A stretch of DNA of 57,963 bases, counting the filler, from Jimgerdemannia flammicorona (Eukaryota): assembly GCA_003990765.1 (NCBI GenBank). It is 2 parts of 2 records of this genome, joined end to end, with 100 filler letters (N's around TTAATTAATTAA, not from the genome) between each part and the next. Parts side by side here need not be neighbours in the genome. Positions count along the whole stretch, not along the records: positions 29,042 to 57,963 come from RBNJ01000533.1; 1 more part is not named here. One strand, 5' to 3'. The notes beneath the pieces were generated by a model. The model made no database searches. It saw only the letters and a program-made list of their open reading frames with translations, and had not been told where the DNA came from. The position numbers and the translations under genes are program-made. Below are positions 16,208-51,200 of the stretch, one piece after another; position 1 is the stretch's first letter, and each line of letters opens with the position of its first letter.

Positions 16208-16669
16208 ATGGCCAGTAACAAAAGTACCATGATGGCACTCAAGATCACTAGTGCTACTCAAAGAGCCATCGAAAGACAATGGTACACCACCGAGCCTCTG
16301 ACCATAGAGCCATACTATGAGAATATTCAGAGTATTGTGCAGACTTATCTCTCTCAGATCTTCCACTTTAGAGCCTATCAATATCGGGCAGAATTCCAAG
16401 AGTACTTCAAGCTTGGATAGGTGCTCAATCAGGATCCAGCAAAGACCAAAGAGGACTGGATTGCCGAGTGTCAACTCTCCCACTCACAGATCACTATTGC
16501 CAACAGGATCCACAAGTTATTCCAAGAAGATGAACCAGCAATAGACCACCTAAGAGGAGTAACCCCCACTGACTTTGAGAAAGTGAGGAGACATCATTGG
16601 GAAACAGTCATGCAGCAAATTGCACAGTACAAGACCATACAGACAGTTGAAGTCTGGGAGTTTGAATAG
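16208..16669 (+). pseudogene. Accessory ORF3 of family A (~153 aa)
   Basis: Two in-frame ORFs joined by one TAG (likely TGG). The ATG overlaps the integrase end. Ends just before the PPT. Confidence 0.75.
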
Positions 16670-22900: not shown

Positions 22901-23889
22901 CTCGGTGTGACGGTGCTGACGTCTACCTTCTGGCCCATGAATGTGTCCTCGTCGCCACACTGCGTCTTCTCGCCGGAATTGGTGAAAGCGTGCCAAACTT
23001 TCGAGAAATTCTATTTTGGTCGCCATAACGGTCGTAGGTTGACGTGGCAGCCGAATATGGTATGAAAGATCCATTTAATGATATTTGGTATTTACGCACG
23101 GAAAATGTGTCTGGAGGATGTAGAGGCTAGGGATTGGACGATATTATACCACTGGTTCCGAGTATCACGGGTTATCTCTGGAGATTCTTTATTCACAAAG
23201 AGGTTGCATTTGCAGGGCAGCGCCGATGTCAAGGCACAATTCAAGAGCAACAAGAAACACGAAATCAATGTTTCCACGTACGCGATGGTATTGCTGCTAC
23301 TGTTCAATGATTTGCCAGAGGGAAAATCCTATTCGTTCAAGGTTTGTTCTACGTCAGTCTTGGGACTGACTCATTATTCACATGGTTTTATGAGAAAGAG
23401 TTGGGGAATAAAGATGGTTGCACTCACTATTAACCTATCAATATCGCGCCATATACAGGAACTACACGAACACACGAAAATCAACGATGCTGATTTAAAA
23501 CGCACGCTGCAATCCTTAGCATGTGCGAAATACAAAGTCCTTACTAAAGAACCAAAGGGTAAGGACGTCAACACGAACGACCAGTTTTACTACAACGCGG
23601 ACTTCACTTGTCCTCTTGCCCGCATCAAGATCCAGACGGTGGCAAGCAAGGTAGAAAGTGAGGGCGAGCGCAAGCACACGCAGGAGAAGGTGGACGAAGA
23701 GCGCAAGCATCAGACCGAGGCCGCGATTGTGCGCATCATGAAGGATAGGAAGACCATGGAACACAACCTGTTAATCACCGAGGTTACCAAGCAGCTGGCG
23801 CCGAGATTCATGCCAAGTCCGAGCATGATCAAGAAGCGGATCGAGGCTTTGATTGATAGGGAGTACCTAGAGAGGGCAAATGGAGATCG
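19930..23889 (+). CDS. CUL3: Cullin-3. Exons 19930-19995, 20401-20772, 20884-21225, 21400-21525, 21653-21701, 21851-22266, 22358-22528, 22680-22793, 22886-23059, 23216-23341, 23459-23889; last short exon not found
   Basis: [58 protein letters not shown], neddylation region [28 protein letters not shown] introns keep the frame. Confidence 0.95.
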
Positions 23890-23979
23890 GTAAGTAAATA
23901 TGGGATTCGAGTGCTTGTTCTGTGTTGGCCGCTTCAATACCAGATGCTTTACGGGTGTGGTTTGATGTCATATGCGTTC

Positions 23980-24022
<43 letters not shown>

Positions 24023-24069
24023 CTTTTTTGTTTTTTTTTTTTTTTTTTTTTTTTTGTTTTTTTTTTATT

Positions 24070-24108
<39 letters not shown>

Positions 24109-25236
24109 TTTCATGTCTTGGACGTCGATCGTGGTACAAGTTTCAATGATTTTCTATCTCATTCTCTCTCTCTTTCGGTATCTGTTCTCTATGCTTTGTG
24201 TTTGGTTTTTGTTCCTTGTCTTGCCGCATATACCTTTGTGCTGCCGTGTCCTGGGTGTTGGTCGACAAATCGATTCAATCTATCTTTCTGCAATCCCTAG
24301 CCGACTTCGCCTTTTTGTAATTAGTAATATGTTGAAACACGCAAACATTTCCCTCTTTTTACGCTTTGTGGCCATCACTCGCTCTGTTTTTTCTTTCTCA
24401 ACATAAACGCGGACGCCAACTTGTCCTCCCTATAAAGGTACCACACTCAACAGGCCTGCCTAGGAACGTCTATGATGGGCAGGCAAAATCAAACGGGATG
24501 GTATGCGTTGTATCTTGGGTCTGTTTATATAAGCCGCTTTTATCGTTAGGGAGAGGGGGGGGGGGAGCAACTCGAGAGACATTTACAGTCAAATTGCGAT
24601 CTCACCTTTTGGTGGTTTTGTACAATGTGCCCTGTAGATCCAATTCTTTAAATTTATTTAGTAAGTTTGATAATTCAAGAGTTATACAAAAGAGCTATAA
24701 GACTGACGAGTTATTTTCTTTTTTTTAAATTATTATTATAAAAAAATAAAAATAAAAAAATAAAAATAATAATAAAAAAAAATCTTATATTAGACATTCA
24801 TATTATTGATAGTATAATTATTTTTAAAATAAATATTAAAAATTAGAATTTTAGTTTTGGTATTAATCATTATAAATAATTATACTCTTTAGGTTTTATT
24901 TATTTATTTTATAAACTAATATTTATATAAAACTAATAACCCTTAAATACTCAAGAACGCGCACGCCATTTTGAATGGTGCAGCATACCCATCAATTCAT
25001 CCGTCGCCGTCCACTCCCTCTCGAGGATGAAGTGTAGAGAGCCAAACATGGTAACAACCTCCTCACACCTAGACAATGTTGAATTGCATCACACAGTATC
25101 AAACAATGGCTAATTATACTATCGTATGATATAAATGTCTAATGAGGGATAGAACCGTTTCTAAAAGAATAGTTTACTTTGAGCTGATTTCATCGAGCTC
25201 AACTCACTTCTGCGTTGCCAAGAGTGACGACTATAG

Positions 25237-25361
25237 TTAAATTGGATGGGACTTGAAAGTTTCCCCTCTGTACGTGAATGTTCCATTCTCGAAGAGGTCG
25301 TCCAACTGCTGTTCCAATGGTAAGTTGGCGCCGCGACACCCTGTCGTAGTGGGGGAAATTT

Positions 25362-25410
<49 letters not shown>

Positions 25411-26288
25411 TGTCAAGCGATTTCACGTCTCGCTTCCCAGCCGATGTTACATGCAAATACACACCATCCACGACTTTCTTCGACCAGACGAAGTACTCGT
25501 GCACTCTTTGTTTGGACCATCCTTGAGGGATAGCGCGTTGAATGTCACGGAGGTTGTACAGCTTGTCGGCAAGTTTGACCTGTTTTGCCTACGGAAGTGA
25601 CATTGAGTGAGCAATGGGATGATATTCGTGCGAGAGAGCAAAAGGAACAATGAAAGAAGATCTGTAAAGTTTCTCGGAAAACACAAAAAAAAAAAAAAAA
25701 AAAGCGGAATGCTGGATGGCATCTCACCTTGAGCGACTTGTGAGGTGCCAATTCGATTTGCAGACGTTTGCGCTCTGACCTGGGCAGGCTCGTGTCGTCC
25801 GTGCATTCCGCAACGATCGATCTCACCTCGGCGCCAAACTGTTCCTCGAGCTTGATAAGGAGACAAAGAGTCTTATTAGAATCGTTCAACCACCAAAGCA
25901 AGACTGGTAACCTCAATCGATTGCCCGAATAATACTGGCAAACACAGGCCGATGGCTCGCCTCTTCAAAACTCGTGTCGGTGTCCTCTACAGTGTCGTGC
26001 AGAACGGCCGCCTGCAGCGTCGCCAAATCCGTTACGCCGGCTTCGCCCAACAGCCTCGCCACGCCAATGGGATGGACGATGTAAGCTAACGAGATGCATC
26101 GAGCGCGTGCGGAGAACGTTGTGAGCCGAGGAGGTTCCCAAAAACCATCTGTGATCCAATAAAAAGCGCTGCAAGGTCCTATTCGAGCGAAGGATATACG
26201 CACGCGAATTCTCGGGGTCCTTGCGCGTCTGCCTAACGTGTTTCCGTGCGGCGAAGTCGATGGCGTAGAGAAGCTGAATGTGATCCAT
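25237..26288 (-). CDS. HDDC3: MESH1/HDDC3-type HD-domain hydrolase. Exons 26288-26204, 26085-25961, 25850-25728, 25588-25465, 25340-25237
   Basis: [53 protein letters not shown]. Confidence 0.9.
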
Positions 26289-26873
26289 GGTATATTTGCT
26301 GGGCAAAGATTTTTTCCAAGGAACGTGCTCATCTCCATATCCATCTTAGTTTATCCTAATTACGTCCCAAAACTCGGAATCCCCTGTCACACCACTGACA
26401 GATGAATCCCAGAATAGCGAGACTATCACGTGACCTTCCTGGGCAAATATTACTCACTCCCTTTTTTTCATTTGTTAAGCTTTTAAACCCTTTTATTACT
26501 GGTGTATTCAAAGAAAATAGTGATTATATTCTAAATAGTATATTATATTATCTCATGTATCAATTATCTAACTCTAAACTAATATAAATAAAAAGAAAAA
26601 TATAATAATACTGCGAGTTTGCTGAATGAAACAGCTCTTAATGACCAATGTTGTCCGAGTTCGACTTAAGCCATCCGCTTGATATTCTGAATTCCTTGAT
26701 CAGCTTACCTGCGCGCTTTCATCAGGTATATTGAATCATTTACTTTTATAATTTGTTATCGCAATGCTCACTTCACTGTCATCTATGTGAATATCAATTC
26801 CAAAGATCCAAGACAACGCAACCCATCCTTCCTTCCCATCCTTCCTTCCCATCCTTTCCCATCCTTCCACCCA

Positions 26874-28201
26874 TCAAAACCCAATGATCCTCTTCTTTTT
26901 CTTCTTTCCACCTTTCACACCGAACGCCCCGGGTTCCGGCTGACTCGCCGCCACGGCCCGGACCTGCGTCTGCTCAGGCTGCTCCGTCGTTGCGACTTGC
27001 GACAGGAACCCGCGCGTCACGGCTGTGGGTATGCTCGACCTCATGACAATCTCCGGGACATGGTCTTCTTGGTCGGACGAGGGAGGAGAAGAGCTCCGCG
27101 TGGCCCTCTTCGCCTTGCGGTTTCTCCCCCCAATCTGCTCGAGGTCAATGGGCTGATGGTCCGGGTTAACGTACTCATACAGACTCGGGTCCTCGCCGAC
27201 GCGCCATTCGGTAAGCAGGGCCAGCGCAGAATTGGAAACGGTAGGTGTTGGTTGCGGGGGAAGCTGTGCGGGGGGCAGAGTCATGTCGTCGTCGCTGTCG
27301 TCGGTGAGATTGATGTTCCGGTGTGCTCGGGATGCGTTGGCGAAAATATACTTGAACGCGAACGGGGGCCTCGCCGAAGTGTATGTGGCGGCGACAGGCG
27401 CGGACGACGATTCCCCCTGCCCGGGTTGAGACGGCGGTTCGAGCCTGGGTTGCTTGCGTTGGAAGGCCTGCATGGCGCCGCGGATGTCCCGGGCGAGGTT
27501 GGCGATAGCTTGATGCCGTGCGGAGCGAGCCAGTGCCAGGGGAAATCGAGTGGACGGTGAGAGTTCATCATTACCACCATTCTCGGATCCATCATCTACG
27601 TTAGGAAATATGTACACCGCCTCCATCGCCCGGACAAGCTCTTCCACCGAACCCGCATTGCCCTCAACGCCGAAAATCCCCGTCTGCGGTACGACGGGCC
27701 AAGACGCGACCCTCGGCCCTAGCTGCATGAGGGTGTTGGCCAGGTGCGCCTCGAAGTTTGCGTCCGAGCCCGCCGTGGTAGAACTGCGCGACGATGATGG
27801 AGAGGGGTAATGAGGTTTCTTGCCTTTCAATACGTCGCTCTTGGTTTCGTCGCCAGGGTCTTTCAGGATCTCGTAGCTAGAGTGTTGATTTGAAAGAATG
27901 TTATAGAACAAGGAAGTACATTAAACTTATAAAAGAGGCTAAATCCGCCGACACCGAAACATAAAACTGACTAGATAAGGCTACTTACAGCGTAAGCGGG
28001 TACGAGACAGTGTCCAATTTCTCCTGGACACTCGTCCCCATCGGCGACAATGGCGCAGCGCCGCGACATATTCTCTCGCCCGGAAGCAATTCATCTGTTA
28101 AATCTGTATGCATCAAAAGCAATAAAATGGGATAACCGTTCAGACAGACCGCCCATCTCCTCACACCAAAATGTTATCCACAACAACCCCCCTCACACCA
28201 A

Positions 28202-29334: not shown

Positions 29335-31856
29335 GCACAGAATTTGTCAATAGATTTCATGAGATAATATATCAGAAATATAAGATTCAGTACATTAAGA
29401 CTACTGTATACCACCCTCAAGGAAATGGACAGACAGAGAGAATCAATAAGACCCTCAAGAACATCCTGACAAAAATCTCAGAGACATATGAGAATTGGGA
29501 TAACTATCTCCCAACTGCCCTCTCTGTCCTATGAGATATATAGTTACAGAGCACACACTTTACCCCAAGAGAACTGCTCTTCAGAGAAGAAGATTCTGAC
29601 AGAACCTCAGCTACAAATCTAGACTTAACTTGGAAATGAGTTAATGCAGAAATCCAGAGACTATATCAAATCAGGAATAAGGCTGAAGATTATATTATCA
29701 AGTCATAAGTACTGACAAAAAAGAATGTGAAAAAGAATTACAAGACCCTAGAACCCATCCAAATCAGAGAAAGATCCTGCTGTATCAAAATATGGTAGAA
29801 GTCTTATGGTTGCAAAAACTAGAGCCCAAATAGGAAGAACCCTTCTATGTACAAGATATCAAGGGAACTATATTCTGGCTTAGAAAAATCTCAGAGACTA
29901 TACTGCCTACTATAGTATACAGGAACAGACTCAAGAAGTACCATGAACCTATACAAGAGAAGTAAAATGTAATGACTGCCCATGAGGTTCTAGTCCATGA
30001 ATCATAACAGCATGTCCTGTGACCAGCAGGCTATCTGTCTGGACCATTCTCTAAGAGATATAGCACCAGCAACTACTCATTCATGAGACTTTCAAAGTCA
30101 GAGAAGTTAACTGATTGGTCAAGATCAGAATTAGGCCCTTGCTCTATATGAAGGGAGCAATCCTTCACCATTATGCCAAAATATATAGGGAAGACACTAG
30201 CCCATAAATACCACTTTTCAACCCCTTGCCAGAGGTTATAGGATCAGCAAATTTTTCAGGACTGGACCAATGAATAAGGATGCTCAAGAAAATCCTTATT
30301 CAGGAGGAAGATATGGTGGTGGCCCTAGGATAATGACATCAGCAAAGGAGATAGCCTTTTCTTACAAGCCACCAGATCAGAGCACAAGAAGATCATATGG
30401 CATATGAGATAAGCAATGATGACCAACTGTGAGTCATTGTGACCACAGTATGAGCATCTTGAGGAATATAAAAGAAGGATCAAGGAACTGCAGTAGCAGC
30501 AACCAACAAGACCCATCAATCCCAAAATAGCTCAAAGACTTACCATAAATGAAATGCCTGCTACTCACCAAACCTCAAGATCAAGGAATTACCAAGGCAC
30601 CTCAGTTGAAGAAAGGATATTCTAAGACATCAGAAGAGCCATGGGGACTCATACAAGAAGGACTCCTAATGTCAACCTGAGTACTGCAGACCCTTATCAC
30701 TATATCCTCTACCACTGTAAAATAGAAACAAGGATCACCATTGCTACTGAATGCCTTCAAATATAGCAGGAGTATAAAATAGGAAACCTCCTCTGTCAGG
30801 AGTTTCCACAGGCCAGCCCTCAAGAGCTATAAGATACCACTCCCATGGATATATATGAGATAAGGATAGCTAAGAAGATCTATCAAATCTTCAGGCATGC
30901 ACCATGGTCAATCTCCAACTTAGAGTATATTAGAGTCTCAGACTTCAGAGACCTGTTATTCCACTGTATCAATGCACTAGAAATCAGGGTGGCTACAGAG
31001 GCCCAGTCCACTATCACCCTCAATAGTAATAAAGTAGAAGACTTCTGACATCCTATCCTTCAGGATAACCCAGACCAATTCCTATAAAGATTGATCTCAG
31101 TATTCCAAGACCCAAGTATCTAGGTTAGATCTCCCCAAGACCCCACATTTGTCTCTTATTTTGTGGAAGAGAACCTCATAGACTAGAGAACCCCAGACCT
31201 CCTTCCTGCCACCACTGAATATGATGATGTCATTGGTAATGACATCATCCTGCATGACATCGAAGTATGCAAAATATACAATCTATGTGATGATGATGAA
31301 TTCACAGATCTCATCTCCTTTAGTGACAATGAGAATGAAGCCTCCATGGTCCTAAACATTCTGCTCTAAGTTCCTTAGTGACACTGAATTGTTCCAGCAC
31401 TGGTATTCTGAGGTGATACTGAATTGTTTCAGCACCAGCATAATACTGAATTATACCAGCATCCTGAACCTATGCAACCATCAGTACTAACTCTGGAACT
31501 TAGCAGTTTTTCCTGTCCTGGCATTTTATTTTAGTTATTGGAATTTATATTTAGCTTTATATCTTAGCAACTATTGAATTATATTTTGTATAAATATCCA
31601 TCTTATTTCCTCTGAAATAAAGTCAGTTCCTCTCAGTGCAATACACACACTTTCTTGCAAGCAATCTAAGAGATAACAAGACAGTTTAAAGATAAGAAGT
31701 TTGAGGACTATAAGACCTTGAGAAGGTACTCCAATAAAAACTTACTTATAACAAACTTATAGTTAGTTATGTATAACAAACTTATAGTTAGTCTAAGAGA
31801 TATACCTTGAAGAGAATCTGATGTATTTGAAGAACTCAATATCCACTATATGATAA
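29331..31856 (+). mobile_element. Family B element, 3' part (integrase end, PPT, 3' LTR from ~30312)
   Basis: TEFVN..YHPQGNGQTER; aggaggaaga PPT; LTR homologous to 39608-41159. Confidence 0.88.
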
Positions 31857-32292
31857 TATGTATAATATAGTCTACTTAGTGCAATATATACAATTTCTTA
31901 TAAGCAATCTAAAGAGATAACAAGATAGTTTAAAGATAAGAAGTTTGAGGACTATAAGACCTTGGGAAGATACTCCAATAAGAACTTGCTTATAACAAAC
32001 TTGTAGTTAGTCTAAGAGATACACCTTGAAGAGAATCTGATATATTAGAAGGACTCAATGCCCACTACATGACAATGTGTATAATATAGTTCTTCTCAGT
32101 ACAATATACACACTTCCTTGCAAGCAATCTAAGAGATAACAAGACAGTTTAAAGATAAGAAGTTTGAGAACTATAAGACCTTGAGAAGGTACTCCAATAA
32201 GAACTTACTTATAACAAACTTGAGTTAGTCTAAGAGATATACCTTGAAGAGAATCTGGCATATTTGAAGGACTCAGTGACCACTACGTGATA
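31624..32292 (+). repeat. Three tandem copies of the R/U5 end of the family B LTR
   Basis: Units of ~220-245 bp start near 31624, 31869 and 32088. Each ends in the cactacatgaca-like LTR terminus. Confidence 0.85.
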
Positions 32293-32462
32293 ATAGATAT
32301 CACTCAATATATATATATTTCTTAGAATTAATATATACTAGATTTGTCAAAATTGACAACTCAACTGTATATTGATTGATTTTATCAAGCTATCAGAATC
32401 TCATTCAGGTAAAAATCTTACTAATACAAACTATATTTGAGATTTTGATATATAGATAAAGA

Positions 32463-33058: not shown

Positions 33059-33915
33059 TCTTATATTTGAATTATTGATTTTTTACTCTAGATATTAGCT
33101 ATAATAATAGATAATGTATCCAACAATACTATATTTTTTCAAACAATCAGAACAGAGTTTGATCATACTAGTCTCAACTATTAGCTAATATAATATATAT
33201 ACTACTTAGTTCATATCATTAATTTGGTTGTTCAGGACTTTTTAGTCTATTTAAAAGCTAATGATAATATATATAAGTAAAGATAGTTCTAGAGAAATAA
33301 TTTTAAAGCTTTAATTAATTATTATTAAGATCTGGTCATTACTATAATATTGAGAGAGATTTATTGCACAATATTAAGCTTTTAGAGTCTGCAATCCAAA
33401 AGAATTTTTTTTAGATATTAAAACTCAATAGAATTCAATATATTTAATAGTTAAACAGACTTTAGAATTATCAGAGATATATAAGCTAATTATATTATAT
33501 TTAATTTTTTTATTAATAATCTTTAATCTCAATAATTATAACTAATAAAGATTTGCAAATATACTGTAGAAGACTATACTTAGTAGATACTAAAAGATAT
33601 TATTGATATACTAAAGTACTTTAAACAAGTAATAGATCTTATAGCTTATTATAAATATTGTAACAGTGATCTCAGAATGATAACATCAGTACAGGAGATA
33701 GCCTTTCCTTATAAGCCACCAGATCAGAGTACAAGAAGATCATACAGCATGACTCACCCAGGCTATAAGATGAGCAATGATGACCAACTATGAGTCATTG
33801 GGACCACCAGACAGATATCTTGAGAAATATAAAAGAAGGATCAAAGAACTGTAGTAGCAGTAACTCAATAAGATCTACTAATCCTGAAATAGCTCAAAGA
33901 CTTATCACAAACAAA

Positions 33916-34737
33916 ATGCCTGCTGTTTGCCAAACCTCAAGGTCAAGAAATCACCAAGGCTCCTCAATCCAGAAAAGGATGTTCTAAGACATCTGAAGAG
34001 CCATAAGGACCCACACTACAAGGACTCTTAGTGTCAATCTGAGTACTGGTGACCCTTATCATTATATTCTCTACTACTGCAAGATGGAAACAAGAATCAC
34101 CATTGCTACCAAATACCTTCAGATGTAGTAAGAATACAAAATAAGAAACCTCCTCTGCTGGGAATTCCCTCAAGCCAGCCCTCAAGAGCTATAAGATACC
34201 ACTTCTATAGATATATATAAAATAAAGATAGCCAAGAAGATTCATCAGATCTTCAGATATGTACTATGGTTGATCTCCAACTTAGAGTATATCAGAGTCT
34301 CAGACTTCAGAGATCTATCAGCCTGCCATATCAATATACTAGAAGCTATAGTGGTTAAAGAAGCCCAGTCAACTATCATCCTCAATAGTGATGAGATAGA
34401 AGAGTTCTGGTATTCCATCTTCCAGGACAACCCAGATCAATTTCTGCAAGGATTGATCTCAGTATTCCAAGGCCCAAGTATCCAGATTAGACCTTCCCAA
34501 GACCCTACATTTATTCCTTATTTTGTGGAAGAGAACCTCATAGACTAGAGAGCCTCAGATCTCCTCACTCTCTCTACTACCAAACATGATGACATTATTG
34601 GCAATGATGTCATCCTGTGTGATATATACAAAATATGTGATAAAGTACATGAAATGGATAAAATATTTGTAGACCTCATTTTTTTTGAGAACAGCAATGA
34701 GGACAAAGTCCCTATGGTTCTGAACTTTCTGCTCTAA
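33916..34737 (+). pseudogene. LTR-encoded accessory protein, family B (copy in 5' LTR)
   Basis: MPAVCQTSRSRN...MVLNFLL*. Homologous frames at 30554-31369, 40084-40917(-), 47153-47986(-) and ~49822-50615. Confidence 0.7.
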
Positions 34738-37700
34738 GTTCTTAGTGATACTAAATTCTGCCAGCATTCTTTTTCTATATAACAGTTAATTCTTCTACTA
34801 GCATTCTGATCCTGTATAACTCTGAATTTTTCCAGCATCCTTTTCCTATATCACTGAAATTCTACCAGCACCCTGAACTTGTGCAATCATCTATACCAAT
34901 ACTGGAATCTGTACTGACAACTGTAGTTTTCTGTGTTCCAGTATTTTATTTGATTATTGGAATTTATATTTAGCTTTATATCTTAGCAATAATTGAATTA
35001 TATTTTGTATAAATACCTCTCTTATTTTCTTTGAAATAAAGTCAGTTCTAGTTTACTTACTCTCAATTCCATGCAAGCAATCTAAGAGATAACAAGACAG
35101 TTTAAAAATAAGAAGTTTGAGGACTATAAGACCTTGGAAAGGCACTCTAATAAGAACTTGCTTATAATAAACTTGAGGTTAGTCTAAGAGATACACCTTA
35201 GAGAGAATCTGACATATTTGAAGGACTCAGCGATCACTACATGATAACTTGATATCTATTGACTGGTGATTCAAGATGAATTCCTCACTTTTAAGCTGAA
35301 AACAAATAACTACCACAACAACTACTCTGATTACAAGAGTTATCCCTGCAAGAATTCAAGATAAGATGGAAATATGTCCCCCTATATTCTATAGATATAC
35401 TACTGAAGAGTCAATCCTGACCTTTATTGAAGACTTTGAACAATTTGCTACCATACAAGCCCTTGGTGTGGATGTACAATTGTCTCTTCTATCAGTTAGC
35501 CTCAGAGAGCCTGCTAGAGATAAGTTCAATATAGCCACTATTGCTGATACTGATATAGCCAAACTTGCCAACATGAAGACCTTCTTCAGAACTACATACT
35601 ATATCAAAGAGATCAAGCAAGCTCTCAAGAATCAACTTAACACTATCTGCCAGAGACTTAGTAAAGATCCCAACTCATTCTATACCCAAATCTGCTATCA
35701 GATTATTTTGGCTGGCTATGATAACTACCTCAAGGACCAAATAGCAGATTCAACCTTCCTGAAAGGAGTTCACCCTGAATTGCCCTAGCAATCTGGTTTA
35801 CCCCAGCTACTCTGACCCTTGACCAGAAAATGGTCTTTATACAGAGATATTGGACTGCCAGACATCCTGCTGAATACTCAATGGAGAAAATAACTGGCAT
35901 CAAGATAGAGCCATTAAAGCCAACCAGTATCATAATCACTATAGTTGTAAACAGACAACTATCCCCACCTATCCCCAAGATAGCCAAAGCTGACTCAGTG
36001 GAGAAACTTGCCAAGCAGTTTGCCAAGATAACTGTACACCTTAGTGATGTTATTAGAGAAGTCCAAAGCACTAATAAGAGATCAGTATAGAGATTTACAG
36101 TTGCTACAGAATGCAATATCATATGCTTCAGATGTGGAGAAGAATGTCACTATGCAAAGAGTTGCATGACTGAAACAAGATACAAAGCCCAACCAAGCAA
36201 TACTATCAGAACCAAAGAACAAACCAATACAGTAGTCATCAAGGAGATTGGTAATACTGATGATGAAGAATACTATGAGGAGTCCAAATTCTACCCTGTT
36301 ACTGAAGATGCCAGAACCCAGTCCAAGCTCTATGATAAGAAGAGCAACCATAAGCCAGTTGGAAGACCAAAGAAGACCCCAGCTGTCACTATTCAAAGTA
36401 AGACCCAATCTGAGGAGATTGATCAAGACATAGAGCTAGATGAAACTGCCTACCAAATTATCAAAGACACTACTCCAGTCTCAGGAGAAAGTGAAAGCAA
36501 GAAAGAACAGAAGCTGCACAAGACTAAGATCCATCAGTATGATATCTACAAGGATCTCAAGGAATAGAAGGTCAATACTACTTTTGGATAGCTAGCTGAA
36601 GTCTCTGCCTTTAGATAGCAGTTGAGAGTAGAACTTGCAACTACTACCAAGAATCAAGAGTACAAGATTGTAGAAGCTCACAATGCATAAGAAGATAATC
36701 AAGAAGATTCAAGTAAAGAATCTGAAGATCAGTACAAGACATCAGCCTATACTCCATATCAGATTGAAGATTGTATCTTAGATGCCATCATTGATACTGG
36801 TGCTGGAGGATGCCTTATGAGCAAGAAGGCAATTGACTACCTAGGCTGGGACATTGAAGAGTCTATCAAGATGGTCTATATCACAGTAGATGGTACACAA
36901 GCTACCCCCCTTGGTAAGATCTGAGAAGTCTCTATCAAGATTGAAGAAGCTACCATCTCAGTAGATGTGATTATTATAAGCACTACTAACTATGATATCC
37001 TCATTGGCAACCAATGACTTTACAAGGCCAAGGCCATCATTGATCTCAATGCCCAGAAGATACAGATCAACTATAGAGAAAGAAAGGTATGAGTCTCTAT
37101 CAATGTCCACAAGGAGTACTGCCAGACATGGAGGAAGGAGATGAAGAGAACACAGAAGTCTTCATACACTTAATATATAAGAATAAAAGCAAGACACCCA
37201 AGCTTACAGATGAGCAGTGGTACAATAAGATCATCAATGGCTATGCCTCTCAAGGAAGATGCCCCTATGGTACTAGGATATACTGCTCTAAATATCTAAA
37301 TGACTACTGGTCCTGTATCAGTAAAGTCAGGAAAATCTGCCAACAAAAGCATGAGCAAGAAGCTACTGAAGCAAAAAGAGAAGCTGAAGAAGATAACCAA
37401 CCCCCAGAGCTTCAAGCTAACAGTGATGATGAGGAGGAACAAGAACCAGACATTACTCTCAAGGTTAAGAAGTTCTACCCCAAAGTCAAGATCCCAGAAT
37501 ACAAGACTGAAGGAGTCATAGAAATAGACCTTGTCAGTATTTAAGATACTAATCTTGAACCCCCAGACCACCACTCTACTTAGCACTGAAATTGGAGTCA
37601 AGTTGCTAGAGAACTATACCAGAATTATCAAGACCAGGAGAAGTCTGGCCAAAAGCAAAATCTCAGTTGAAGGAGGAGTAATTGACCCTGATTACACTGG

Positions 37701-39607: not shown

Positions 39608-42600
39608 TGTCACATAGTGGTCGCTGAGTCCTTCAAATATGCCAGATTCTCTTCAAGGTATATCTCTTAGACTAACTCAAGTTGTTATAAGCAAGTTCTT
39701 ATTGGAGTGCCTTCCCAAGGTCTTATAGTCCTCAAACTTCTTATCTTTAACTGTCTTGTTATCTCTTAGATTGCTTGCAAGGGATTGTGTATTGCACTGA
39801 ACTTGACTGACTTTATTTCAGAGGAAATAAGAGGGGTATTTATACAAAATACAATTCAATGGTTGCTAATATATAAAGCTAAATATAAATTCCAATAACT
39901 AAAACTACTAAGTTCCAGAGTCGGTACTGATGGTTGTACAGGTTCAGGATGCTGGCATTATTTAGTATCACATCAAAATGTCAGTGCTGGAACAATCTTG
40001 CATCACCTCAGAATACCGGTGCTGGCATTATCCAGTATTACATGAGAATACCAGTGCTGGTATTATCTAGTATAACACAGAACTTAGAGCAGAAAGTTCA
40101 GGACCATGGGAGCTTCATCCTCATCATCATTATCACTGAAAGAGATGAGATCTGCAAATTCATCATTTTTGCATACTTCATTATGCATCTTGCATATGTC
40201 AATGTTGCATGGAATAACATCATTGCCAATGACGTCATCCTGTTTGGCTGTGGTGGGAAGATCAGGAACAAGATCTGGAGCTCTCCAGTCTATGAGGTTC
40301 TCTTCTACAAAATAGGGAACAAATGTTGGGTCTTAGGGAGGTCTAACCTGGATGCTTGGGTCTTAGAATACTGAGATCAATCCTTACAGGAATTGGTCTG
40401 AGTTGTTCTGAAGGATAGGATGCCAGAAGTCTTCTACTTCTTCACTGTTGAGGGTGATAGTGGACTGGGCTTCTGTAGCCACCCTGGCTTCTAGTGCATT
40501 GATATGGCAGGATGATAGGTCTCTGAAGTCTGAGACTCTAACATACTCCAAGTTGGGAATCAACTATAGTACATGCCTGAAGATCTGATGGATCTTCTTA
40601 GCTGTCCTTGTTTTGCATATATCCACAGGAGTGGCATCTTATAGCTCTTGGGTGCTGGCTTGTGGGAACTCCTGGCAGAGGAGGTTTTCTATTTCATACT
40701 CCTGCCACATTTGGAGGCATTTAGTAGCAATAGTGATCCTTGTTTCCATTTCATGGTGGTAGAGAATGAAGTGATAAGGGTCTGCAGTACCCAGGTTGAT
40801 ACTAGGAGTCCTTCTTGAGCAGGTCCTCATGGCTCTTCTAATGTCTTGGAACATCCTTTCCTTGACCGAGATACCTTGGTAATTCCTTGACCTTGAGGTT
40901 TGGCAGGTAGCAGGCATTTCATTTGTAGTAAGTCTTTGAGCTATTTTGGAATTGGTGGTTCTTGTTAGTTGCTGCTACTGTAGTTCCTTGATCCTTCTTT
41001 TATATTCTTCAGGATGTTTGTACTGTGGTCACAATGACTTACAGTTGGTCATCATTGCTCATCTCATATGCTGTATGATCTTCTTGTGCTCCGATCTGGT
41101 GGCTTGTAAGGAAAGGCTATCTCTGGTACTGATGTCATCATTCTGGGGTCACCATTACATCTTTCTCCTGAATAAGGATCTTCCTGAGCATCCTTATTCA
41201 TTGGTCCAGTCTTGAAAAATTTGCTGATCCCATAACCTCTGGTAAGGGGTTGAAAACTGGTATTTATGGGCTAGCATCTTCCCTTTGTATTTTGGCATAA
41301 TAGTGAAGAGTTGCTCCCTTCATATAGAGCAAGGGCCTGATTCTGATCTTGACCAATCAGTTGACGGTTTGAACTCCTCTAACTTCGAAAGTCTCATAGA
41401 TGAGTAGTTGCCAGTGCCATATCTCTTAGAGAATGGTCTAGACAGATAGCCTACTGGTCATGGGACATGCTGTTATGATTTGCAGACTAGAACCTCATGG
41501 GCAGTCATCACATTTTGCTTCTCTTGTATAGGTTCATGGTACTTCTTGAGTCTGTTCCTATGTACTGTGGTAGACAGTATGGTCCCTGAGATTTTTCTAA
41601 GCCAGAAGGTAGTTCCCTTGATATCTTGCATATAGAAGGGTCCTTCCCATTTGGGCTCCAGTTTTCACGACCATGAGGCTTCTACCATATTTTGATACAG
41701 TAGAACCTTTTCTTTGATTCAGATGGGTTCTAGGGCCTTGTGATTCTTTTCCGCATTCTTCCTTATCAGCGCTTGTGACTTGGTGATGTAATCTTCAGCC
41801 TTCTTCCTGATTTGGTGTAGTCTCCAGATTTCTGCATCAACCCATCTCTAAGTTAGGTCTAGATTTGTGGCTGAGGTTCCATCAGAATCTTCTTCTCTGA
41901 AGAGCAGCTCTCTTAGGGTAAAATGTGTGCTCTGTGACCATATGTCTCATAGAACAGAGAGGGCAGTTGGGAGATAGTTATCCCAATTCTCATATGTCTC
42001 TGAGATCTTTGCTAGGATGTTCTTGAGGGTCTTGTTGGTTCTTTCTGTTTGTCCATTTTCTTGAGGGTGGTATGCAGTGGTCTTGATGTGCTGGATCTTA
42101 TATTTCTGATACATTATCTTGTGGAATCCATTAACAAATTCTGTACCATGGTCTGTTGTGATTTGCTTTGGTGTCTTGTAGCAGCAGATGATTTCTCAGT
42201 GTAGGAAGTCAGCTATAGAGAGGGCATTGGCTTCTTGTAATGCTCCTGCCTCTATCCATTTAGTGAAGAGGTCTACAATAACTATAATATAGCAGTTTCC
42301 TGATAGTATTACTGATAGTGGTCCAATGATATCCATTGTGATGTGGTGGAAGGGGATAGGCTCAATTCTTAATGATCCAGGTGCCTGGTCTTGCTGATCT
42401 TGTTTCTGTTTTTGGCACTTGTCACACTCTTTGACAAATTGGTGCAGGTCTTCTTCCATCTTGGGCCACTACATGGTTCTTCTTACCTTGTCATATGTGT
42501 TGGTTCCTCCTAAGTGTCCTTGCTCATGTACTTCCTTCATTATTTGATACTTCTTGTATTCAGGTATTACTAGCTTTCCTCCTTTTCTGAGTATAGTGTT

Positions 42601-45600
42601 GTCTAATTCAAACTGTTTCTAAGTCTGGTTGATGATGGTGATTATCCAGGGTTCGAGATGGTTGGGCATCTTCTGCTACCCAAGGTAGCTGATTAATCCA
42701 TAGTATAGCTCTTTATTTATGTTGAGTAGTCTTGATGGAGGTGTTTTGGAGTGTCCTTGAGAGTGCATCAGCATTGGTGTTGGTCTTTCCTGAGTGGTGC
42801 TTGACAGTACAGTCATACTCTTGCAGCCTGTAGATCCATCTGGCATATATTCCTTTGGAGTTCAGAGTGTGGAATAGCTAGGCAAGAGTGGAATGGTCCA
42901 TTTGAATGGTGAAGTGTTTTCTGGCTAGATAGTAGTGGAACTTGTCTACTGCCCAAACTATTGCTAAGCATTCAAGCTTGCATGACTTGTAGTTCTGTTC
43001 TGCTCCATGGGTACCTCAGCTTGCATAGGAGATGACATATTCATGTCCATCTTCTGAGCTAGGACTGCTCTAAGTCCTATAGCACTCACATCTGTCTGCA
43101 GGATGAATTCTAGGTTCCAGTCTGGTCTTCTGAGGATGAGTGCTTGGGTCAACCTGGTCTTGAGTTCATTGAAGGTTTCTTGGCACTCCTTGGTCCATTC
43201 GAATTTGGTCTCCTTCTTCAGTAGCTCATAGATAGATGCTGCAATATTGGAGTATCCTTTGATAAATCTTCTGTAGTAGCTGGGCAGTCCAAAGGAAGGT
43301 GTGGACTTCTGTAGTTGTTCTGGGTCTCAGGTAGGCTGCAACAGCCTCAATATTTATGGGGTCTGTGTGGATTCCAGTCTGGTTGATGAGGTGTCCTAGG
43401 TAGGCAATTTCTTGAGCTGCAAACTTGCATTTCTTGAGCTTGATATAGAGGCCATGCTCCTTGAGCCTCTTGAGGGCTAGCTGTATGTAATTGATATGTT
43501 TCCATATAGTGTTGCTGAAGATGATCACATCATCAACATAGATAAAGAGCCATTTTCCAATCTCGTTGCTGAAGACTCTGTTCATCATTCACTGGAAACT
43601 TGCTGGGGCATTGCACATTCCAAATGGCATTCGCAGATAGATATAGGTAGCATCAGATATGATGAAGGCTGATTTCTCACTGGCATCTTAAGTGAGACTG
43701 ATCTGATGGAAGCCTGAGAACAGATCCAAGGTGGTGTAGTATTTGGCTTTACTTCTAAGAGTGGTAAGGATTTCTTGAATATTCGGCAAGGGCTGCCTAT
43801 CCTTCTTGGTGATGGCATTGAGTTTCCTGTAGTCAATGCAGGGTCTTGGTACAAACTCTCCAGGCTTACTTCCTTTCTTTGGGGCAAGGACAATGGGTGA
43901 GGCCCAGGGGCTGATAGCTTGCTTGATGATTTTAGCTTCTTCTATTTCCTTGAGTTCGGCTCACAGCCACTCTCTGTAGGCAGGTGGTATGGGTCTGGCT
44001 TTCTGATAGATAGGCTTGGTATCACCAGTGTCAACTTTATAGTAGTACTTGGGTTCTTGATTGTGGATATCCCTAAAGTCTGTAGCAAGTACTCCTTCAT
44101 TCTGATACAGGATCTTGAGAAGTTGTTCCTCCAGGGGAAAGTTTTCTCCAATGATATATGTGTGCTTGTTCTGGTTCTTGTCTTTCTTGTGCTCAAGTTC
44201 AGTAATCTTGGTAGCAGCATAGGCTCCTCTTCTAGTAGATCCAAAGCCTTGTTCTCCTCTCTTGGTCTTGATAAGTTCAGTGACTTCTATGATCTTGGGC
44301 TTCTTGATTTCATGGATCAGCATCTGGCCAATCCTGTCATACTTCTTAACTTTGAAGGGGGTGGTGTGGTTGTGATTTCTGACTATGAGAAAAATCTCGC
44401 CAGTGTAATCAGGGTCAATTACTCCTCCTTCAACTGAGATTTCACTTTTGGCCAGACTGCTCCTAGTCTTGATAATTCTGGCATGGTTTTCTGACAACTT
44501 GACTCCAATTCCAGTGCCAAGTAGGATGGTGGTCTGTGGTTCAAGGGTAGCATCTTGGATACTGGCAAGGTCCATTTCTATGGCTCCTTCAGTCTTGTAT
44601 TCTGGGATCTTGGCTTCAGGGTGAAACTTCTTGACCTTGAGGGTGATGTCTGATTCTTGTTCCTCCTCATCGTTACTGTCAGCTTGAAGCTCTGGGGGCT
44701 GGTCATCTTCTTCAGCTTTCCTTTTTGCTTCAGCAGCTTCTTGCTTATGTTTCTGTTGGCAGATTTTCCTGACTTCACTGATACAGGACCAGCAGTCATT
44801 CAGGTGTTCAGAGCAGTACATTCTAGTACCATGGGGGTATCTTCCTTGAGGGGCATACCTATCGATGATCTTGTTATACCACTGCTCATCTGTGAGCTTG
44901 GGTGTCTTGTTCTTGTTCTTGTTCACTAAGTGCATGAAGACCTCTGTGTCTTCTTCATCTCCTTCCTCTATGTCTAGCAGGACTCTTTTGTGGAAATTGA
45001 TAGAAACTCATACCTTTCTTCCTCTGTAGTTGATCTGTATCTTCTGGACATTGAGGTTAATGATGGCCTTGGCCTTGTGAAGCCATTGGTTGCCAATGAG
45101 GATATCATAGTTGGTGGCACTTATAACAATCACATCTACTGGAATGGTAGCTCCTCCTATCTTGATGGAGACTTCTCAGATTTTGCTAAGGGGGGTAGCT
45201 CGTGTACCATCTGCTGTGACATAGACCATCTTGGTGGACTCTTCAATGTCCCAACCTAGGTAGTCAATTGCCTTCTTGCTCATGAGGCATCCTCCAGCAC
45301 CAGTATCAATGATGGTATCAAAGATACAGTCTTCAATCTGGCAGGGGGTATAGGCTGATGTCTTGTGCTGGTCTTCGGATTCTTCACCTAAGTTCTCAGA
45401 TTCTTCTTGTGTATTGTTAGCTTCTATGATCTTGTACTCTTGATTCTTGATGATAGTTGCAAGTCCTACTCTCAACTGCTGTCTGAAGGCAGGGACTTCA
45501 GCTAGTTGCCCAAAAGTGGCATTGACCTTCTGTTCCTTGAGGTCCTTGTAGATATCATACTGGTGGATCTTGGTCTTGTGCAGCTTCTGTTCCTTCTTGC

Positions 45601-48228
45601 TCTCACTTTCTCCTGAGACTGGAGTAGTGCCTTCGATAATTTAGTGGGCAGCTTCATCTAACTCCATGTCTTGATCAATCTCCTCAGACTGGGTCTTGCT
45701 TTGAATAGTGATAGCTGGAGTCTTCTTTGGTCTTCCAACTGGCTTGCTGTTGCTCTTCTTGTCATAGGGCTTGGACCAGGTTCTGGTACCTTCAGTAGCA
45801 GGATAGAATTTGAGCTCCTCCTGCAAATCTCTGCACTGGTCTCCTGTTGGTGCTTCAGACTTCTCTAACAACATCACCGAGGTGTGTAGTCATCTTGGCA
45901 AACTGCTTGGCAAGTTCTTCCACTGGATCAGCTTTGGCTGTCTTGGGAGTAGGTGGGGTTGGTTGTCTGTTTATAACTATGGCAGGTAAGATACTAGTTG
46001 GCTTTGATGGCTCCATCTTGATGCCAGTTATTTTCTCCATTGAGTGTTCAGTAGGGTGTCTGGCAGTCCAATATCTCTGTGCAAAGACCACTTTCTGATC
46101 AAGAGTCAGTGCAGCTGGGGTAGACCAGATTTCTAGGGCAATTTCAGAGTGAACTCCTTTGAGGAAGGTTGAATCCGCTATTTGTTCCTTGAGGGTATCA
46201 TCATAGCCAGCCAAGACAATCTGGTGGCAGATTCTGGTATAGAATGAGTTGGGATCTTCACTAAGTCCCTAGCAGATAGTATTGAGTTGATCCTTGAGAG
46301 CTTGCTTGATCTCTTCAGTATAATATGTTATTCTGAGAAAGGTCTTCATGTTGATAAGTTTGACTGCATCAGCACCAGCAATGGTGGCTGCATTAAACTT
46401 GTCTCTGGCAGGTTCTCTGAGGCTGACTGGTAGAAGGGCCAATTGAGCATCCACACCAAGGGCTCGTATAGCAGCAAATTGTTCAAAGTCTTCAATAAAG
46501 GTCAGGATTGACTCTTTAGTAGTATATCCATAGAATGTGGGGGGATGCATTTCCATCTTATCTTGAATTCTTGCAGGGGTGACTCTTGTAGTCAGGGTAG
46601 TTGTTGTGGGGGTTGTTCGTTTTTCAGCTTGAAAGTGAGGGATTCATCTTGAATCACCAGCCAATGGGCACCAAGTTGTCATGTAGTGGTCGCTGAGTCC
46701 TTCAAATATGCCAGATTCTCTTCAAGGTATATCTCTTAGACTAACTCAAGTTGTTATAAGCAAGTTCTTATTGGAGTGCCTTCCCAAGGTCTTATAGTTC
46801 TCAAACTTCTTATCTTTAACTGTCTTGTTATCTCTTAGATTGCTTGCAAGGGATTGTGTATTGCACTGAACTTGACTGACTTTATTTCAGAGGAAATAAG
46901 AAGGATATTTATACAAAATACAATTCAATAGTTGCTAAGATATAAAGCTAAATATAAATTTCAATAACTAAAACTACTAAGTTTCAGAGTCAGTACTGAT
47001 GGTTGTACAGGTTCAGAATGCTGGCATTATTTAGTGTTACATCAAAATGCCAGTGCTAGAACAATCTTGCATCACCTCAGAATACTGGTGCTGGCATTAT
47101 CCAGTGTTACATGAGAATACCAGTGCTGGTATTATCCAGTGTAACACAGAACTTAGAGCAGAAAGTTCAGGACCATGGGAGCTTCATCCTCATCATCATC
47201 ATCACTGAAGGAGATGAGATCCACGAATTTATCATTTTTATATACTTCGTTATGTGTCTCATATATGTCAATGTTGCGTGGAATGACATCATCACCAATG
47301 ATATCATCCCATTCAGCTGTGGCAGGAAGATCAGGAACAAGATCTGGAGCTCTCCAGTCTATGAGGTTCTCTTCCACAAAATAGGGAACAAATGTGGGGT
47401 CTTGGGGAGGTCTAACCTGGATGCTTGGACCTTGGAATACTGAGATCAATCCTTGCAAGAATTGGTCTGGGTTGTCCTGAAAGATAGGATACCAGAAGTC
47501 TTCTACTTCTTCACTGTTGAGAGTGATAGTGGACTGGGCTTCTGTAGCCACTCTGGCTTCTAGTGCATTGATATGGTGGGATGATAGGTCTCTGAAGTCT
47601 GAGACTCTAACATACTCCAAGTTGGGGATCGACCATAGTGTATGCCTGAAGATCTGATGGATCTTCTTAGCTGTCCTTATTTCATGTATATCCATGGGAG
47701 TGGCATCTTGTTACTCTTGGGTGCTGGCTTGTGGGAACTCCTGGCAGAGGAGGTTTCCTATTTCATACTCCTGCCACATTTGGAGATATTTGGTAGCAAT
47801 AGTGATCCTTGTTTCCATTTCACGGCAGTAGAGAATGAAGTGATAAGGGTCTGCAGTACTCAGGTTGACACTAGGAGTCCTTCTTGAGCAGGTCCTCATA
47901 GCTCTTCTGATGTCTTGGAATATTCTTTCCTCAACTGAGATACCTTGGTAATTCCTTGACCTTGAGGTTTGGCAGGCAGCAGGCATTTCGTTTGTGGTAA
48001 GTCTTTGAGCTATTTTGGGATTGGTGGTTCTTATTGGTTGCTGCTACTGTGGTTCCTTGATCCTTCTTTTATATTCTTCAGGATGCTTGTGCTGTGGTCA
48101 CAATGACTCACAGTTAGTCATCATTGCTTATCTCATATGCTGTATGATCTTCTTGTGCTCTGATCTGGTGGCTTGTAAGAAAAGGCTGTCTCCAGTGCTG
48201 ATGTTATCATTCTGGGGTCACCGTTACA
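39608..48228 (-). mobile_element. Ty3/Gypsy family B element, full length, nested (LTRs 46677-48228 and 39608-41159, 1552 bp each)
   Basis: TG...CA LTRs, intact PBS at 46676, PPT aggagaaaga, apparent TSD ATAT. IIDTGAG, GGVIDPDYTGEI..RGEQGFGST, YVDDV, VDLFTKW. The gag CCHC region appears deleted. Confidence 0.95.
47153..47986 (-). pseudogene. LTR-encoded accessory protein, family B, best-preserved copy (~278 aa)
   Basis: 91-aa and 180-aa ORFs in the same frame, separated by one stop. tataaaag lies ~80 nt upstream. Confidence 0.8.
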
Positions 48229-51200
48229 ATATATAATAAAGCAAAAGAACTATGTAGTGGTCTAAGATAAAAGAAGACCTGTACTAATTTGTCAAAGAGT
48301 ATAACAAGTGCTAAAAACAGAAACAAGATCAGTAAGACCAAGCACCCAGGTCATCAAAAATTGAGCTTATTCCCTTCTACCACATTATAATGGATATCAT
48401 TGGGCTGCTACTAGTAATACTATCAGGAAACTGCTATATTATAGTTATTGTAGACCTCTTTACCAAGTGGATAGAAGCAGGAGTATTACAAGAAGCCAAT
48501 GCTCTCTCTATAGCCAACTTTCTATACTAAGAAATTATCTGTCACTATAAGATACCAAAGCAAATTACTACAGACTGCAGTACAGAATTTGTCAATAGAT
48601 TCTATGAGACAATGTATCAGAAATACAAGATTCAGTACATCAAGACCACTATATACCACCCTCAAGGAAATAGACAGATAGAGAGAGCCAACAAGACCCT
48701 CAAGAACATCCTGGTGAAGATCTCAGACACATATGAGAATTGGGATAACTACCTCCCAACTGCCCTCTCTGTCTTACAAGATATGATTACAGAGCACACA
48801 CTTTACCCCAAGAGAACTACTCTTCAGAGAAGAAGATTCCAAAGAAACCTCAGCCACAAATCTAGACCTAACTTAGAGATAAGTTGACTTAGAAATCCAG
48901 AGACTATACTAAATCAGGAAGAAGGCTGAAGATTACATCATCAAGTCACAAGCACAGATAAAAAAGAATGTAGAGAAAAATTACAAGATCCTAAAACCCA
49001 TCCAAATCAGAGAAAAGGTTCTACTGTATTGAAATATGGTAGAAGCCTTATGGTCATAAAAACTGAAGCTCAAATAGAAAGGACCCTTCTATATGCAAGA
49101 TATCAAGAGAACTACCTTCTGGCTTAAAAAACTCTCAGAGACCATACTACCTACTACAGTGCACAGGAACAGACTCAAGAAGTACCACAAACCTATATAA
49201 GAGAAGAAAAACATGATAACTGCCCATGAGGTTCTAGTTCATAAATTGTAATAGCATGTTCTGTGATCAGCAGGTAATCTATCTGGTCCATTCTCTAAGA
49301 AATATAGCACTAGCAACTACTCATCTGTGAGACTTTTGAAGTCAGAGAAGTTCAAACCATCAATTGATTGGTCAAGATCAGAATCAGGCCCTTGCTCTAT
49401 ATGAAGAGAGTGACTCTTCACCATCACACCAAAATATATAGAGAAGACACTAGTCCATAAACACTACTTTTCAACCCTCTGCCAGAGATTATGAGATCAA
49501 CAAATTTTTCAAGACTGGATCAATAAATAAGGACATTCAAGAAGATCCTTATTTAGAAAGAAGATATAATGGTGACCTCAGAATGATGACATCAGCACAG
49601 GAGACAGTCTTTCCTTACAAGCCACTAGATTGGAGCACAAGAAGATTATATGGCATGACTCACCCAGGTTACAAGATGAGCAATGATGACCAACTATAAG
49701 TTATTAGAACTATAAGACAGATAGCTCAAGAAATATAAAAGAAGGATTAAGAAACTACAGTAGCAGTAACTCAACAAGACTCACTAATTCCAAAATAGCT
49801 CAAAGACTTACCACAAACAAAATATCTACTGTTTTCCAAACCTCAAGATCAAGGAACCACCAAGGCTCCTCAGTTCAGGAAAGGATATTTCAAGATATAT
49901 GAAGAGCCATAAGGACTCACACTACAAGGACTCCTAGTGTCAACCTGGGTACTGGTGACTCTTATTATAATATTCTCTTGATAGAAACAAGAATCACTAT
50001 TGCTACCAAATATCTCTAGATGTGGTAAGAATATGAAATAGGAAACCTCCTCTGCTGGGAATTCTCTCAAGCCAGCCCTCAAGAGCTATAAGATACTACT
50101 CCCATGGATATATATGAAATAAGAACAGCCAAGAAGATTCATCAGATCTTTAGGTATATACTATAGTCAATCTCCAACTTAGAGTATATCAGAGTCTCAG
50201 ACTTCAGAGATCTGTCAGCCCACTGTATCAATGCACTAGAAGCCATAGTGGTTACAGAAGCCAATAGTGATAAGGTAGAAGAGTTCTGATATCCCATTCT
50301 TCAGGACAACCTAGATCAATTCCTACAAGAATTGATTTCAGTATTCTAAGGCCCAAGCATTCAGATTAGACCTCTCTAAGACCCCACATTTGTTCCTTAT
50401 TTTGTAGAAGAGAACCTTATAGACTGAAGAGCCCTGGATCTCCTTGCTCTCTCTACCACCAAATGTGATGATGTCATTGGCAATGATATCATCTCATGTG
50501 ATATATGCAAAATACATGACAAAGTATGTGAAATGGACAAAACATTTGCAGATCTCATCTTCTTTGAGAAGAGCAATGAGGACAAAGCCCCCATAGTCCT
50601 GAACTTTTTGCTCTGAGTTCTTGGTGATACTGAACTCTACTAGCATTCTTTTTCTGTGTAACAGTTAATCCTTTCACTGGCATTCTGATCTTGTGTAATC
50701 TGAATTCTTCCAGCATCCTTTTCCTGTACTATCAAAATTCTATCAGTACTCTGAACTTGTACAACTATCTATACTAATACTGGAATCTGTACTGACAACT
50801 GTAGTTTTCTGTGTTCCAGTATTTTATTTGGTTATTGGAATTTATATTTAGCTTTATATCTTAGCAACTATTGAATTATATTTTGTATAAATACCCCTTT
50901 TATTTTCTTTGAAATAAAGTCAGTTCCAGTTTACTTACTCTCAATTTCATACAAGCAATCTAAGAAATAATAAGACAGTTTAAAGATAAGAAGTTTGAGA
51001 ATTATAAGACCTTAGGAAGGTACTTCAATAAGAACTTGCTTATAACAAACTTGAGATTAGTCTAAGAGATATACCTTGGAGAGAATCTGATGTATTTGAA
51101 GGACTCAGTGACCACTACATGATAATATTTAATGATTTATTCTACTATTCCTATTTATAACTTTCTAATGGATATATTGGAGGATAATGATCAAGAAATT

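Follow-up and report, generated by a model that had tools for sequence, protein, structure and literature searches.

Inside U3 of the long terminal repeats (LTRs) of a Ty3/Gypsy retrotransposon family of Jimgerdemannia flammicorona lies an open reading frame (ORF) that was under purifying selection while the elements multiplied, and a TATA box precedes it at a nearly fixed distance. Related ORFs with a similarly placed box are found in other lineages, just upstream of the polypurine tract (PPT) in some and just downstream of it, in U3, in others. We interpret them as an accessory gene of fungal Ty3/Gypsy elements that travels as a cassette of TATA box, 60–90-nt leader and ORF, and we give this reading, in which the box is a promoter and the product a regulator, a probability of roughly 0.6.

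A Ty3/Gypsy element with an ORF in U3

The window (the whole stretch of 57,963 nt that was analysed, filler included) is repeat-rich, and self-comparison revealed nested LTR elements in it. The reference LTR belongs to subfamily B1 of a family that we call B, is part of an element that carries a dUTPase, and runs on the minus strand from 48228 to 46677; TATAAAAG is followed 87 nt on by an ATG, a 277-codon frame with its stop at 47155–47153, TATAAATA and AATAAA. The features of this element and of the other family-B LTRs are listed here, those on the minus strand beginning at their higher coordinate.

46677–48228, minus: 5' LTR of the B1 element, 1,552 bp, TG…CA ends; 112 differences in 1,552 from its own 3' LTR, 109 of them transitions
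48066–48073, minus: TATA1 (TATAAAAG), candidate promoter for the U3 gene, at the same position in five other lineages
47153–47986, minus: U3 accessory ORF, one TAA at codon 92 (47713); basic N-terminus, predicted helical core (aa ~18–150), acidic tail
46906–46913, minus: TATA2 (TATAAATA), putative promoter of genomic RNA, at the presumed U3/R border
46881–46886, minus: AATAAA poly(A) signal, 27 nt past TATA2 and 1,187 nt past TATA1
46661–46676, minus: primer-binding site (PBS; ACTTGGTGCCC…); a PBS adjoins 12 of 52 fetched LTR copies
43961–44935, minus: pol fragment with dUTPase domain, same element (Pfam PF00692, E 5e-26)
41160–41170, minus: PPT before the 3' LTR; a PPT precedes 18 of 52 fetched LTR copies
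39608–41159, minus: 3' LTR of the B1 element; TATA1 41004, ORF 40917→40084 (5 stops), from self-comparison and the read-out of copies
33659–35246, plus: 5' LTR of an older subfamily-B2 element that hosts the B1 element; TATA1 33828, ORF 33916–34737 (6 stops), from self-comparison and copy alignment
49565–51124, plus: 3' LTR of the same B2 element; TATA1 49734, decayed ORF 49822–50616, from self-comparison and copy alignment
30314–31855, plus: fifth family-B LTR, the 3' LTR of a truncated element; TATA1 30467, ORF 30554–31369 (7 stops), from self-comparison

Family B is a Ty3/Gypsy LTR retrotransposon. Its direct terminal repeats have TG…CA ends, a PBS follows the 5' LTR, a PPT precedes the 3' LTR, and ATATAT is duplicated on both flanks of the complete B1 element. 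The dUTPase was detected in family B itself; the pol order protease–RT–integrase, with a Ty3-like RT, comes from Pfam and Ty3 RT matches to frames of a second family, A, which are collinear with family-B pol at 66–68% DNA identity. The ORF is situated wholly in U3, as sag is in MMTV.

The B2 element has the B1 element inserted within its pol, and the window holds five family-B LTRs (48228→46677, 41159→39608, 33659–35246, 49565–51124 and 30314–31855). A preliminary description had credited each of them with a TATA box ~80 nt before a complete ORF of ~278 codons. The box is present in all five, 87–88 nt before the start position, and a frame of 795–834 nt follows it; the length is 277 codons in the reference copy, and none of the five is open, with 1, 5, 6, 9 and 7 internal stops (LTRs starting at 48228, 41159, 33659, 49565 and 30314, respectively) and ATA instead of ATG in the copy at 49565. 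The second TATA box and the AATAAA that had been described past the stop are there in every one of them, 27 nt apart.

Several other sequences share the window. Behind the fifth LTR, at 31869–32298, a ~200-bp piece from the 3' end of the family-B LTR occurs twice in tandem, and host genes stand among the repeats at 20365–27728: a cullin gene (plus), an HD-domain gene (minus) and an RRN6-like gene (minus), the first and last of which suggest fungal DNA. At positions 3–8073 another element is present as an inverted pair of ~7.1 kb (92% identity); it has ORFs of 372 and 381 aa that have no Pfam family, as well as RT-like fragments, and judged by eye, we take it to be possibly Penelope-like.

Signal retention among genome copies

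A search of the 231-Mb assembly gave 3,690 first-look candidates for family-B LTRs, of which 40 were scored and the 30 best examined for open frames; the frame is open from ATG to stop in 3 of these 30 best matches, a sample that, like the other genome samples, is biased to copies resembling the query. For alignment we used 57 LTRs, 5 from the window and 52 fetched from the genome, omitting L001, L019 and L058 as duplicates of window copies. They fall into two star-like subfamilies, B1 (30 copies) and B2 (26), and one intermediate copy. TATA1 is retained in 54 of the 54 copies that cover it, TATA2 in 46 of 47 and AATAAA in 47 of 47. Family-B insertions are mostly at TATA/ATAT-rich sites and have 4-bp target duplications, and five of the 52 fetched LTRs are solo copies flanked by such duplications.

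The U3 ORF was under purifying selection

To separate the history of the subfamilies from later damage, we calculated net divergence between B1 and B2, that is, between-subfamily divergence minus within-subfamily decay. In the ORF frame, net dN/dS (30 B1 versus 26 B2 copies) is 0.18 [0.11–0.27]; the two remaining sense frames give 1.40 and 1.67, and the antisense frames 0.95, 1.97 and 0.31, the last being expected of a shadow frame. An integrase control, measured in 19 copies linked to a 3' LTR, gave 0.16 [0.07–0.35]. All four subfamily-diagnostic indels inside the ORF have lengths divisible by 3, unlike many of those elsewhere; three in-frame stops lie 5' of the ATG in every full-length B1 copy read in register, and homologues begin with 'MP' at the same place as the family-B ORF. 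Frame-specific low dN/dS, frame-keeping indels, fixed upstream stops and a shared start together show that this frame was a selected gene, under purifying selection during the multiplication of the elements.

The 242 nt upstream of the ATG (47987–48228, minus) are likewise low in net dN/dS (0.20–0.23) when read in the ORF frame, despite the fixed stops, a value that depends on 7 diagnostic sites and is accompanied by no third-position excess. An upstream extension of the ORF, as a nef-like overlap from the internal region, was considered and is ruled out by the fixed in-frame stops before the ATG, by a 14-bp plus 1-bp indel pair between the subfamilies, and by stops fixed in each of the 3 frames from integrase to PPT. 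For that stretch in family B, a second selected ORF is unsupported, all intervals including 1. Net dS between B1 and B2 is 0.32 in the LTR ORF and 0.12 in integrase, a disparity that hints at module exchange by recombination between the LTR and internal regions.

Inserted copies decay neutrally

C/T and G/A account for approximately 92% of the differences within subfamilies, mostly at CpA/TpG, and in family-B LTRs CpG is depleted to 0.15 and 0.01 of expectation, versus 1.03 in the neighbouring cullin gene; this spectrum resembles methylation-driven or RIP-like mutation of repeats. After insertion, C→T changes that create nonsense codons are as frequent as synonymous ones (B1, 0.076 vs 0.089, p 0.41; B2, 0.228 vs 0.226, p 0.84), and inserted copies thus decay neutrally. 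The ORF had been expected to be preferentially open in young copies. This is true between subfamilies, the younger B1 having a mean of 1.6 stops per copy (n=29) and B2 6.1 (n=25; one short copy was dropped from each), but not within B1, where stop number is unrelated to divergence and the copies with least divergence are not the open ones (rho 0.01, p 0.94). In none of the five solo LTRs confirmed by target-site duplications is the frame intact from ATG to stop. Solo LTRs could express the gene, as a by-product and not as a selected function: the neutral decay of inserted copies argues against a selected role for them and, with the broken frames, leaves the idea that such expression matters unsupported.

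Homologous ORFs on either side of the PPT

Protein searches returned homologues at 33–81% identity, all from metagenome collections, and homologues extend down to ~30% identity across other lineages and samples. Two of the metagenomic homologues led to abundant families, D and E, in the same genome, and a further lineage, L123, is represented by a metagenome contig. Two other families with related ORFs are present in the window itself.

16122–16669, plus: family A; TATAAAAG inside the integrase coding sequence, then a homologous 153-codon ORF (16208–16669) that ends just before the PPT, outside the LTR
13804–15865, minus: family-C solo LTR (~2.06 kb) that interrupts the integrase of a family-A element; TATATA box at 15652 and a distantly related 365-codon ORF from 15577

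The family-A ORF is homologous to the U3 ORF (HHalign E 2.3e-6; score above 999 of 999 shuffles), overlaps the end of integrase, and has its 153 codons open in 7 of 12 fetched copies. Kinship of the family-C ORF is weak: HHalign gives E 0.0019 at a probability of 14%, and the score exceeds all of 999 shuffles by a small margin. Its LTR has 4,029 first-look candidates genome-wide. The 3' part of the family-E LTR (copies L103–L122) consists of variable short tandem repeats, and the end of that LTR is hence unfixed.

With respect to the PPT, the lineages fall on both sides. In A, D and L123 the stop of the ORF abuts or just precedes the PPT, and the ORF is consequently internal, a sense-oriented additional ORF between pol and the 3' LTR; in B, C and E it is downstream of the PPT, inside U3. 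The cassette is therefore a mobile 3' module rather than a feature of LTRs only, and since the family-D integrase has a chromodomain, it spans distinct lineages. It had been proposed that the gene is duplicated in each element. Where the selected gene is wholly in U3 there are indeed two per element, but with the cassette outside the LTR in three lineages the duplication is a consequence of position and not essential.

A TATA-type box at a similar distance in six lineages

A TATA-type box is found 62–88 nt before the ORF start in all six lineages examined. It is at −86 in family A (12 of 12 copies), −87 in B1 and −88 in B2, about −75 in family C (TATATA, every covering copy), −71 to −73 in family D (18 of 18 copies with enough upstream sequence), −62 in family E (TATTTAA, 14 of 14) and −80 in L123. 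In one copy per lineage, each box is the sole one in 160 nt upstream, with a chance of 0.005–0.036 per lineage in shuffled sequence; the background is 41 of 1,422 window ATGs of like composition (2.9%). The pattern counted here was widened after families C and E were seen, and with a strict TATAWAW only A and D pass among four independent families (C, 2 of 14 copies). The upstream regions cannot be aligned between lineages, save for a 20-nt leader common to B1 and L123, which makes L123 not fully independent of B1. The family-A box is spelled by the integrase codons ATA AAA; at this place all three window copies of family B have ATC AAG/AAG.

TATA1 is thus far above chance, because homologous ORFs in five other lineages have a box at the same distance, and to that extent the putative two-promoter LTR of the preliminary description has partial support. 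The arrangement of TATA2 followed after 26–27 nt by AATAAA recurs in families D and E. Contigs of two runs, whose RNA type we guessed, were compared with 41200–48300. Such contigs carry no information on start, strand or level, and the cover in X1 extends over the entire LTR, upstream of TATA1 and downstream of AATAAA as well, which speaks neither for nor against a TATA1 transcript.

A predicted helical protein with an acidic tail

No match to the U3 ORF protein was obtained in Pfam, PHROGs or PDB sequences (no Pfam family at E ≤ 10 for seven family-B-type proteins, and no PDB match below E 1.4). An initial AlphaFold2 model, of the family-B protein from 9 sequences, was set aside at pLDDT 42. 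From a 23-sequence alignment headed by a family-D copy, a helical core at residues ~18–150 was confidently predicted (pLDDT 80, pTM 0.73). Residues ~68–154 of this model yielded weak, compact structural matches to VirB (Z 4.2 and 3.6), SopB (3.6) and ParB (3.2), with rmsd 3.6–6.7, and unrelated helical proteins scored equally; Foldseek returned nothing at E ≤ 0.001 from the PDB and viral libraries, and VIA-align nothing at Z ≥ 5.

Language-model searches point weakly to DUF3102. A first ESM search returned unnamed clusters only; among 30 named ESM matches, 11 are DUF3102 clusters and the top ones are other families. In the viral-structure list DUF3102 ranks eighth (E 0.88). The DUF3102 profile has no match in the genome or in the U3-ORF proteins, and none of 47 pattern matches in viral contigs was confirmed. 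In charge, the N-terminus of the family-B protein is basic (+0.13 per residue, aa 1–60), and past residue 150 an acidic tail (−0.14 to −0.19 per residue) is present in all but family A. The models make it conceivable, at somewhat below even odds in our estimate, that the protein is a DNA-binding regulator, either a transactivator or an anti-silencer.

A proposed mechanism and its rivals

An ORF at the 3' end could not be translated from genomic RNA, a difficulty that a promoter of its own would solve. We think it likely, from the recurrence of the box, that TATA1 is a real promoter from which an mRNA of ~1.2 kb would be made, ending at the AATAAA of the LTR. As AATAAA is only 27 nt past TATA2, the start of genomic RNA would lie at the signal or beyond it, whereas RNA from TATA1 would contain it and could end in any LTR. 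The protein, with its predicted helical core, possible ParB/VirB-like helix-turn-helix arrangement and acidic tail, would then switch on or de-silence the main LTR promoter, much as Tas does when made from the foamy-virus internal promoter, and expression from solo LTRs would be a by-product. For the U3 position we lean slightly towards a shift of the plus-strand priming site across the cassette, which could have gone in either direction. A broader version, in which several chromoviral and non-chromoviral fungal Ty3/Gypsy lineages share a regulatory cassette (promoter plus ParB/VirB-like anti-silencer or transactivator) that crossed the PPT into U3, forming a foamy-virus-like two-promoter circuit in which any LTR could supply the activator in trans, is tentative and on present indications rather doubtful.

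Other explanations differ in what they deny. That the ORF is a chance or relic frame without function might seem to follow from the many broken copies and the failure to match Pfam, PHROGs or PDB, but its probability is negligible, refuted as it is by a frame-specific net dN/dS of 0.18, by indels that keep the frame and by homologues as distant as ~30% identity. A gene placed in the LTR for the sake of continued expression from solo LTRs, to the benefit of element or host, which is the strong form of the original proposal, could draw on thousands of first-look candidates (3,690) and on the five solo LTRs, in which the whole TATA1–AATAAA unit is present; with every one of those frames broken, nonsense C→T changes matching synonymous ones after insertion, and the gene outside the LTR in three lineages, we find it very improbable. 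It is also improbable, if less so, that the gene is real and TATA1 incidental, expression coming from spliced or read-through RNA of the ordinary 5' LTR promoter. Spliced messages are the typical source of ORF3 products in LTR retrotransposons, according to the excerpted text of PMC5408684, and two of the boxes are non-strict variants; yet all six lineages have just one TATA-type box, at −62 to −88, against a 2.9% background, and the family-A box lies within integrase codons and is absent from the sister family B.

The main alternative accepts both gene and promoter and has the protein act on RNA or particles, in export of unspliced genomic RNA, packaging or suppression of RNA silencing, as accessory proteins of other retroelements do. 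We regard it as unlikely, although the basic N-terminus in family B and the lack of a significant DNA-binding fold match speak for it. The CERV protein of Cer1, reportedly an RNA-export protein, counts on the same side, as does the inclusion of transport among the roles proposed for additional ORFs (PMC7264820, in excerpt). Against it, ParB-type DNA-binding domains are the only structural hints that recur, and a separate promoter and an acidic tail would better fit an early regulator of transcription, which is the role that we prefer.

Comparison with known systems

Among known systems, the proposed circuit is most readily set beside that of foamy viruses, in which Tas/Bel1, the product of a 3' accessory ORF, is made via an internal promoter inside env, binds DNA and activates the LTR promoter (PMC7390438, as excerpted). 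Foamy viruses have two promoters per element and the present elements two putative ones, the second lying inside a gene coded upstream (env in the viruses, integrase in family A) and, here presumably, serving a 3' accessory ORF. Unlike foamy viruses, the present elements are fungal Ty3/Gypsy elements without env, in B, C and E the whole unit is in U3, and promoter activity and transactivation are here putative; no sequence homology to Tas/Bel1 was found in the Pfam and PDB searches described above. The sag gene of MMTV is alike in placement, an accessory ORF in the U3 of an unusually long LTR (about 1.3 kb there; 1.55–2.06 kb here), and differs in that its product, a type II membrane superantigen, comes from RNAs that are alternatively spliced (excerpted text of PMC9147501), whereas the present protein models as a helical domain and has no Pfam match, to superantigen families or any other. 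At the level of the protein, the ParB/SopB/VirB helix-turn-helix core and DUF3102, both of bacterial or phage proteins, offer a weak likeness, structural over ~80 residues and through language-model neighbours, that is below significance and without a profile match.

Extra ORFs are also present in other retrotransposons. Maize Grande gene23, in the internal region of a Ty3/Gypsy element, has its own promoter, is antisense and encodes a nuclear protein (PMC7264820); plant additional ORFs of this kind are, like ours, conserved and near the 3' end, but they are internal, none being described inside an LTR in the excerpted account, while the present ORF is in sense and on either side of the PPT. 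In bdelloid rotifers, extra 3' ORFs (ORF3s) that encode enzymes or env-like proteins are common to distant lineages, in elements that bear a dUTPase (PMC5408684), and the excerpted text does not use the terms 'promoter', 'TATA' or 'within the LTR' of them. ORF0 of Retrosat2 is upstream of gag-pol and not comparable (PMC3485330, in excerpt). In the literature searched, which did not extend to Repbase-type annotations or most subscription papers, we came across no gene said to lie wholly within an LTR of a Ty3/Gypsy element, and an earlier description is possible.

The LTRs of retrotransposons are treated as non-coding, and such genes consequently escape annotation even at thousands of copies. 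A conserved module of ORF and putative promoter on both sides of the PPT offers a direct, testable case of an LTR growing and capturing a gene, which is how U3 genes of retroviruses, sag among them, are usually assumed to have arisen. Should the product prove to be a transactivator or anti-silencer, retrotransposons would have in it a counterpart to the regulation of complex retroviruses, and it could help to explain the expansion of these elements in a genome that heavily mutates its repeats. The U3 gene is sag-like in placement and, in its proposed working, foamy-virus-like, and is a member of neither family; with an extra gene and a promoter-like TATA box in the LTR, these fungal elements, their copies decaying, resemble complex animal retroviruses more than ordinary retrotransposons.
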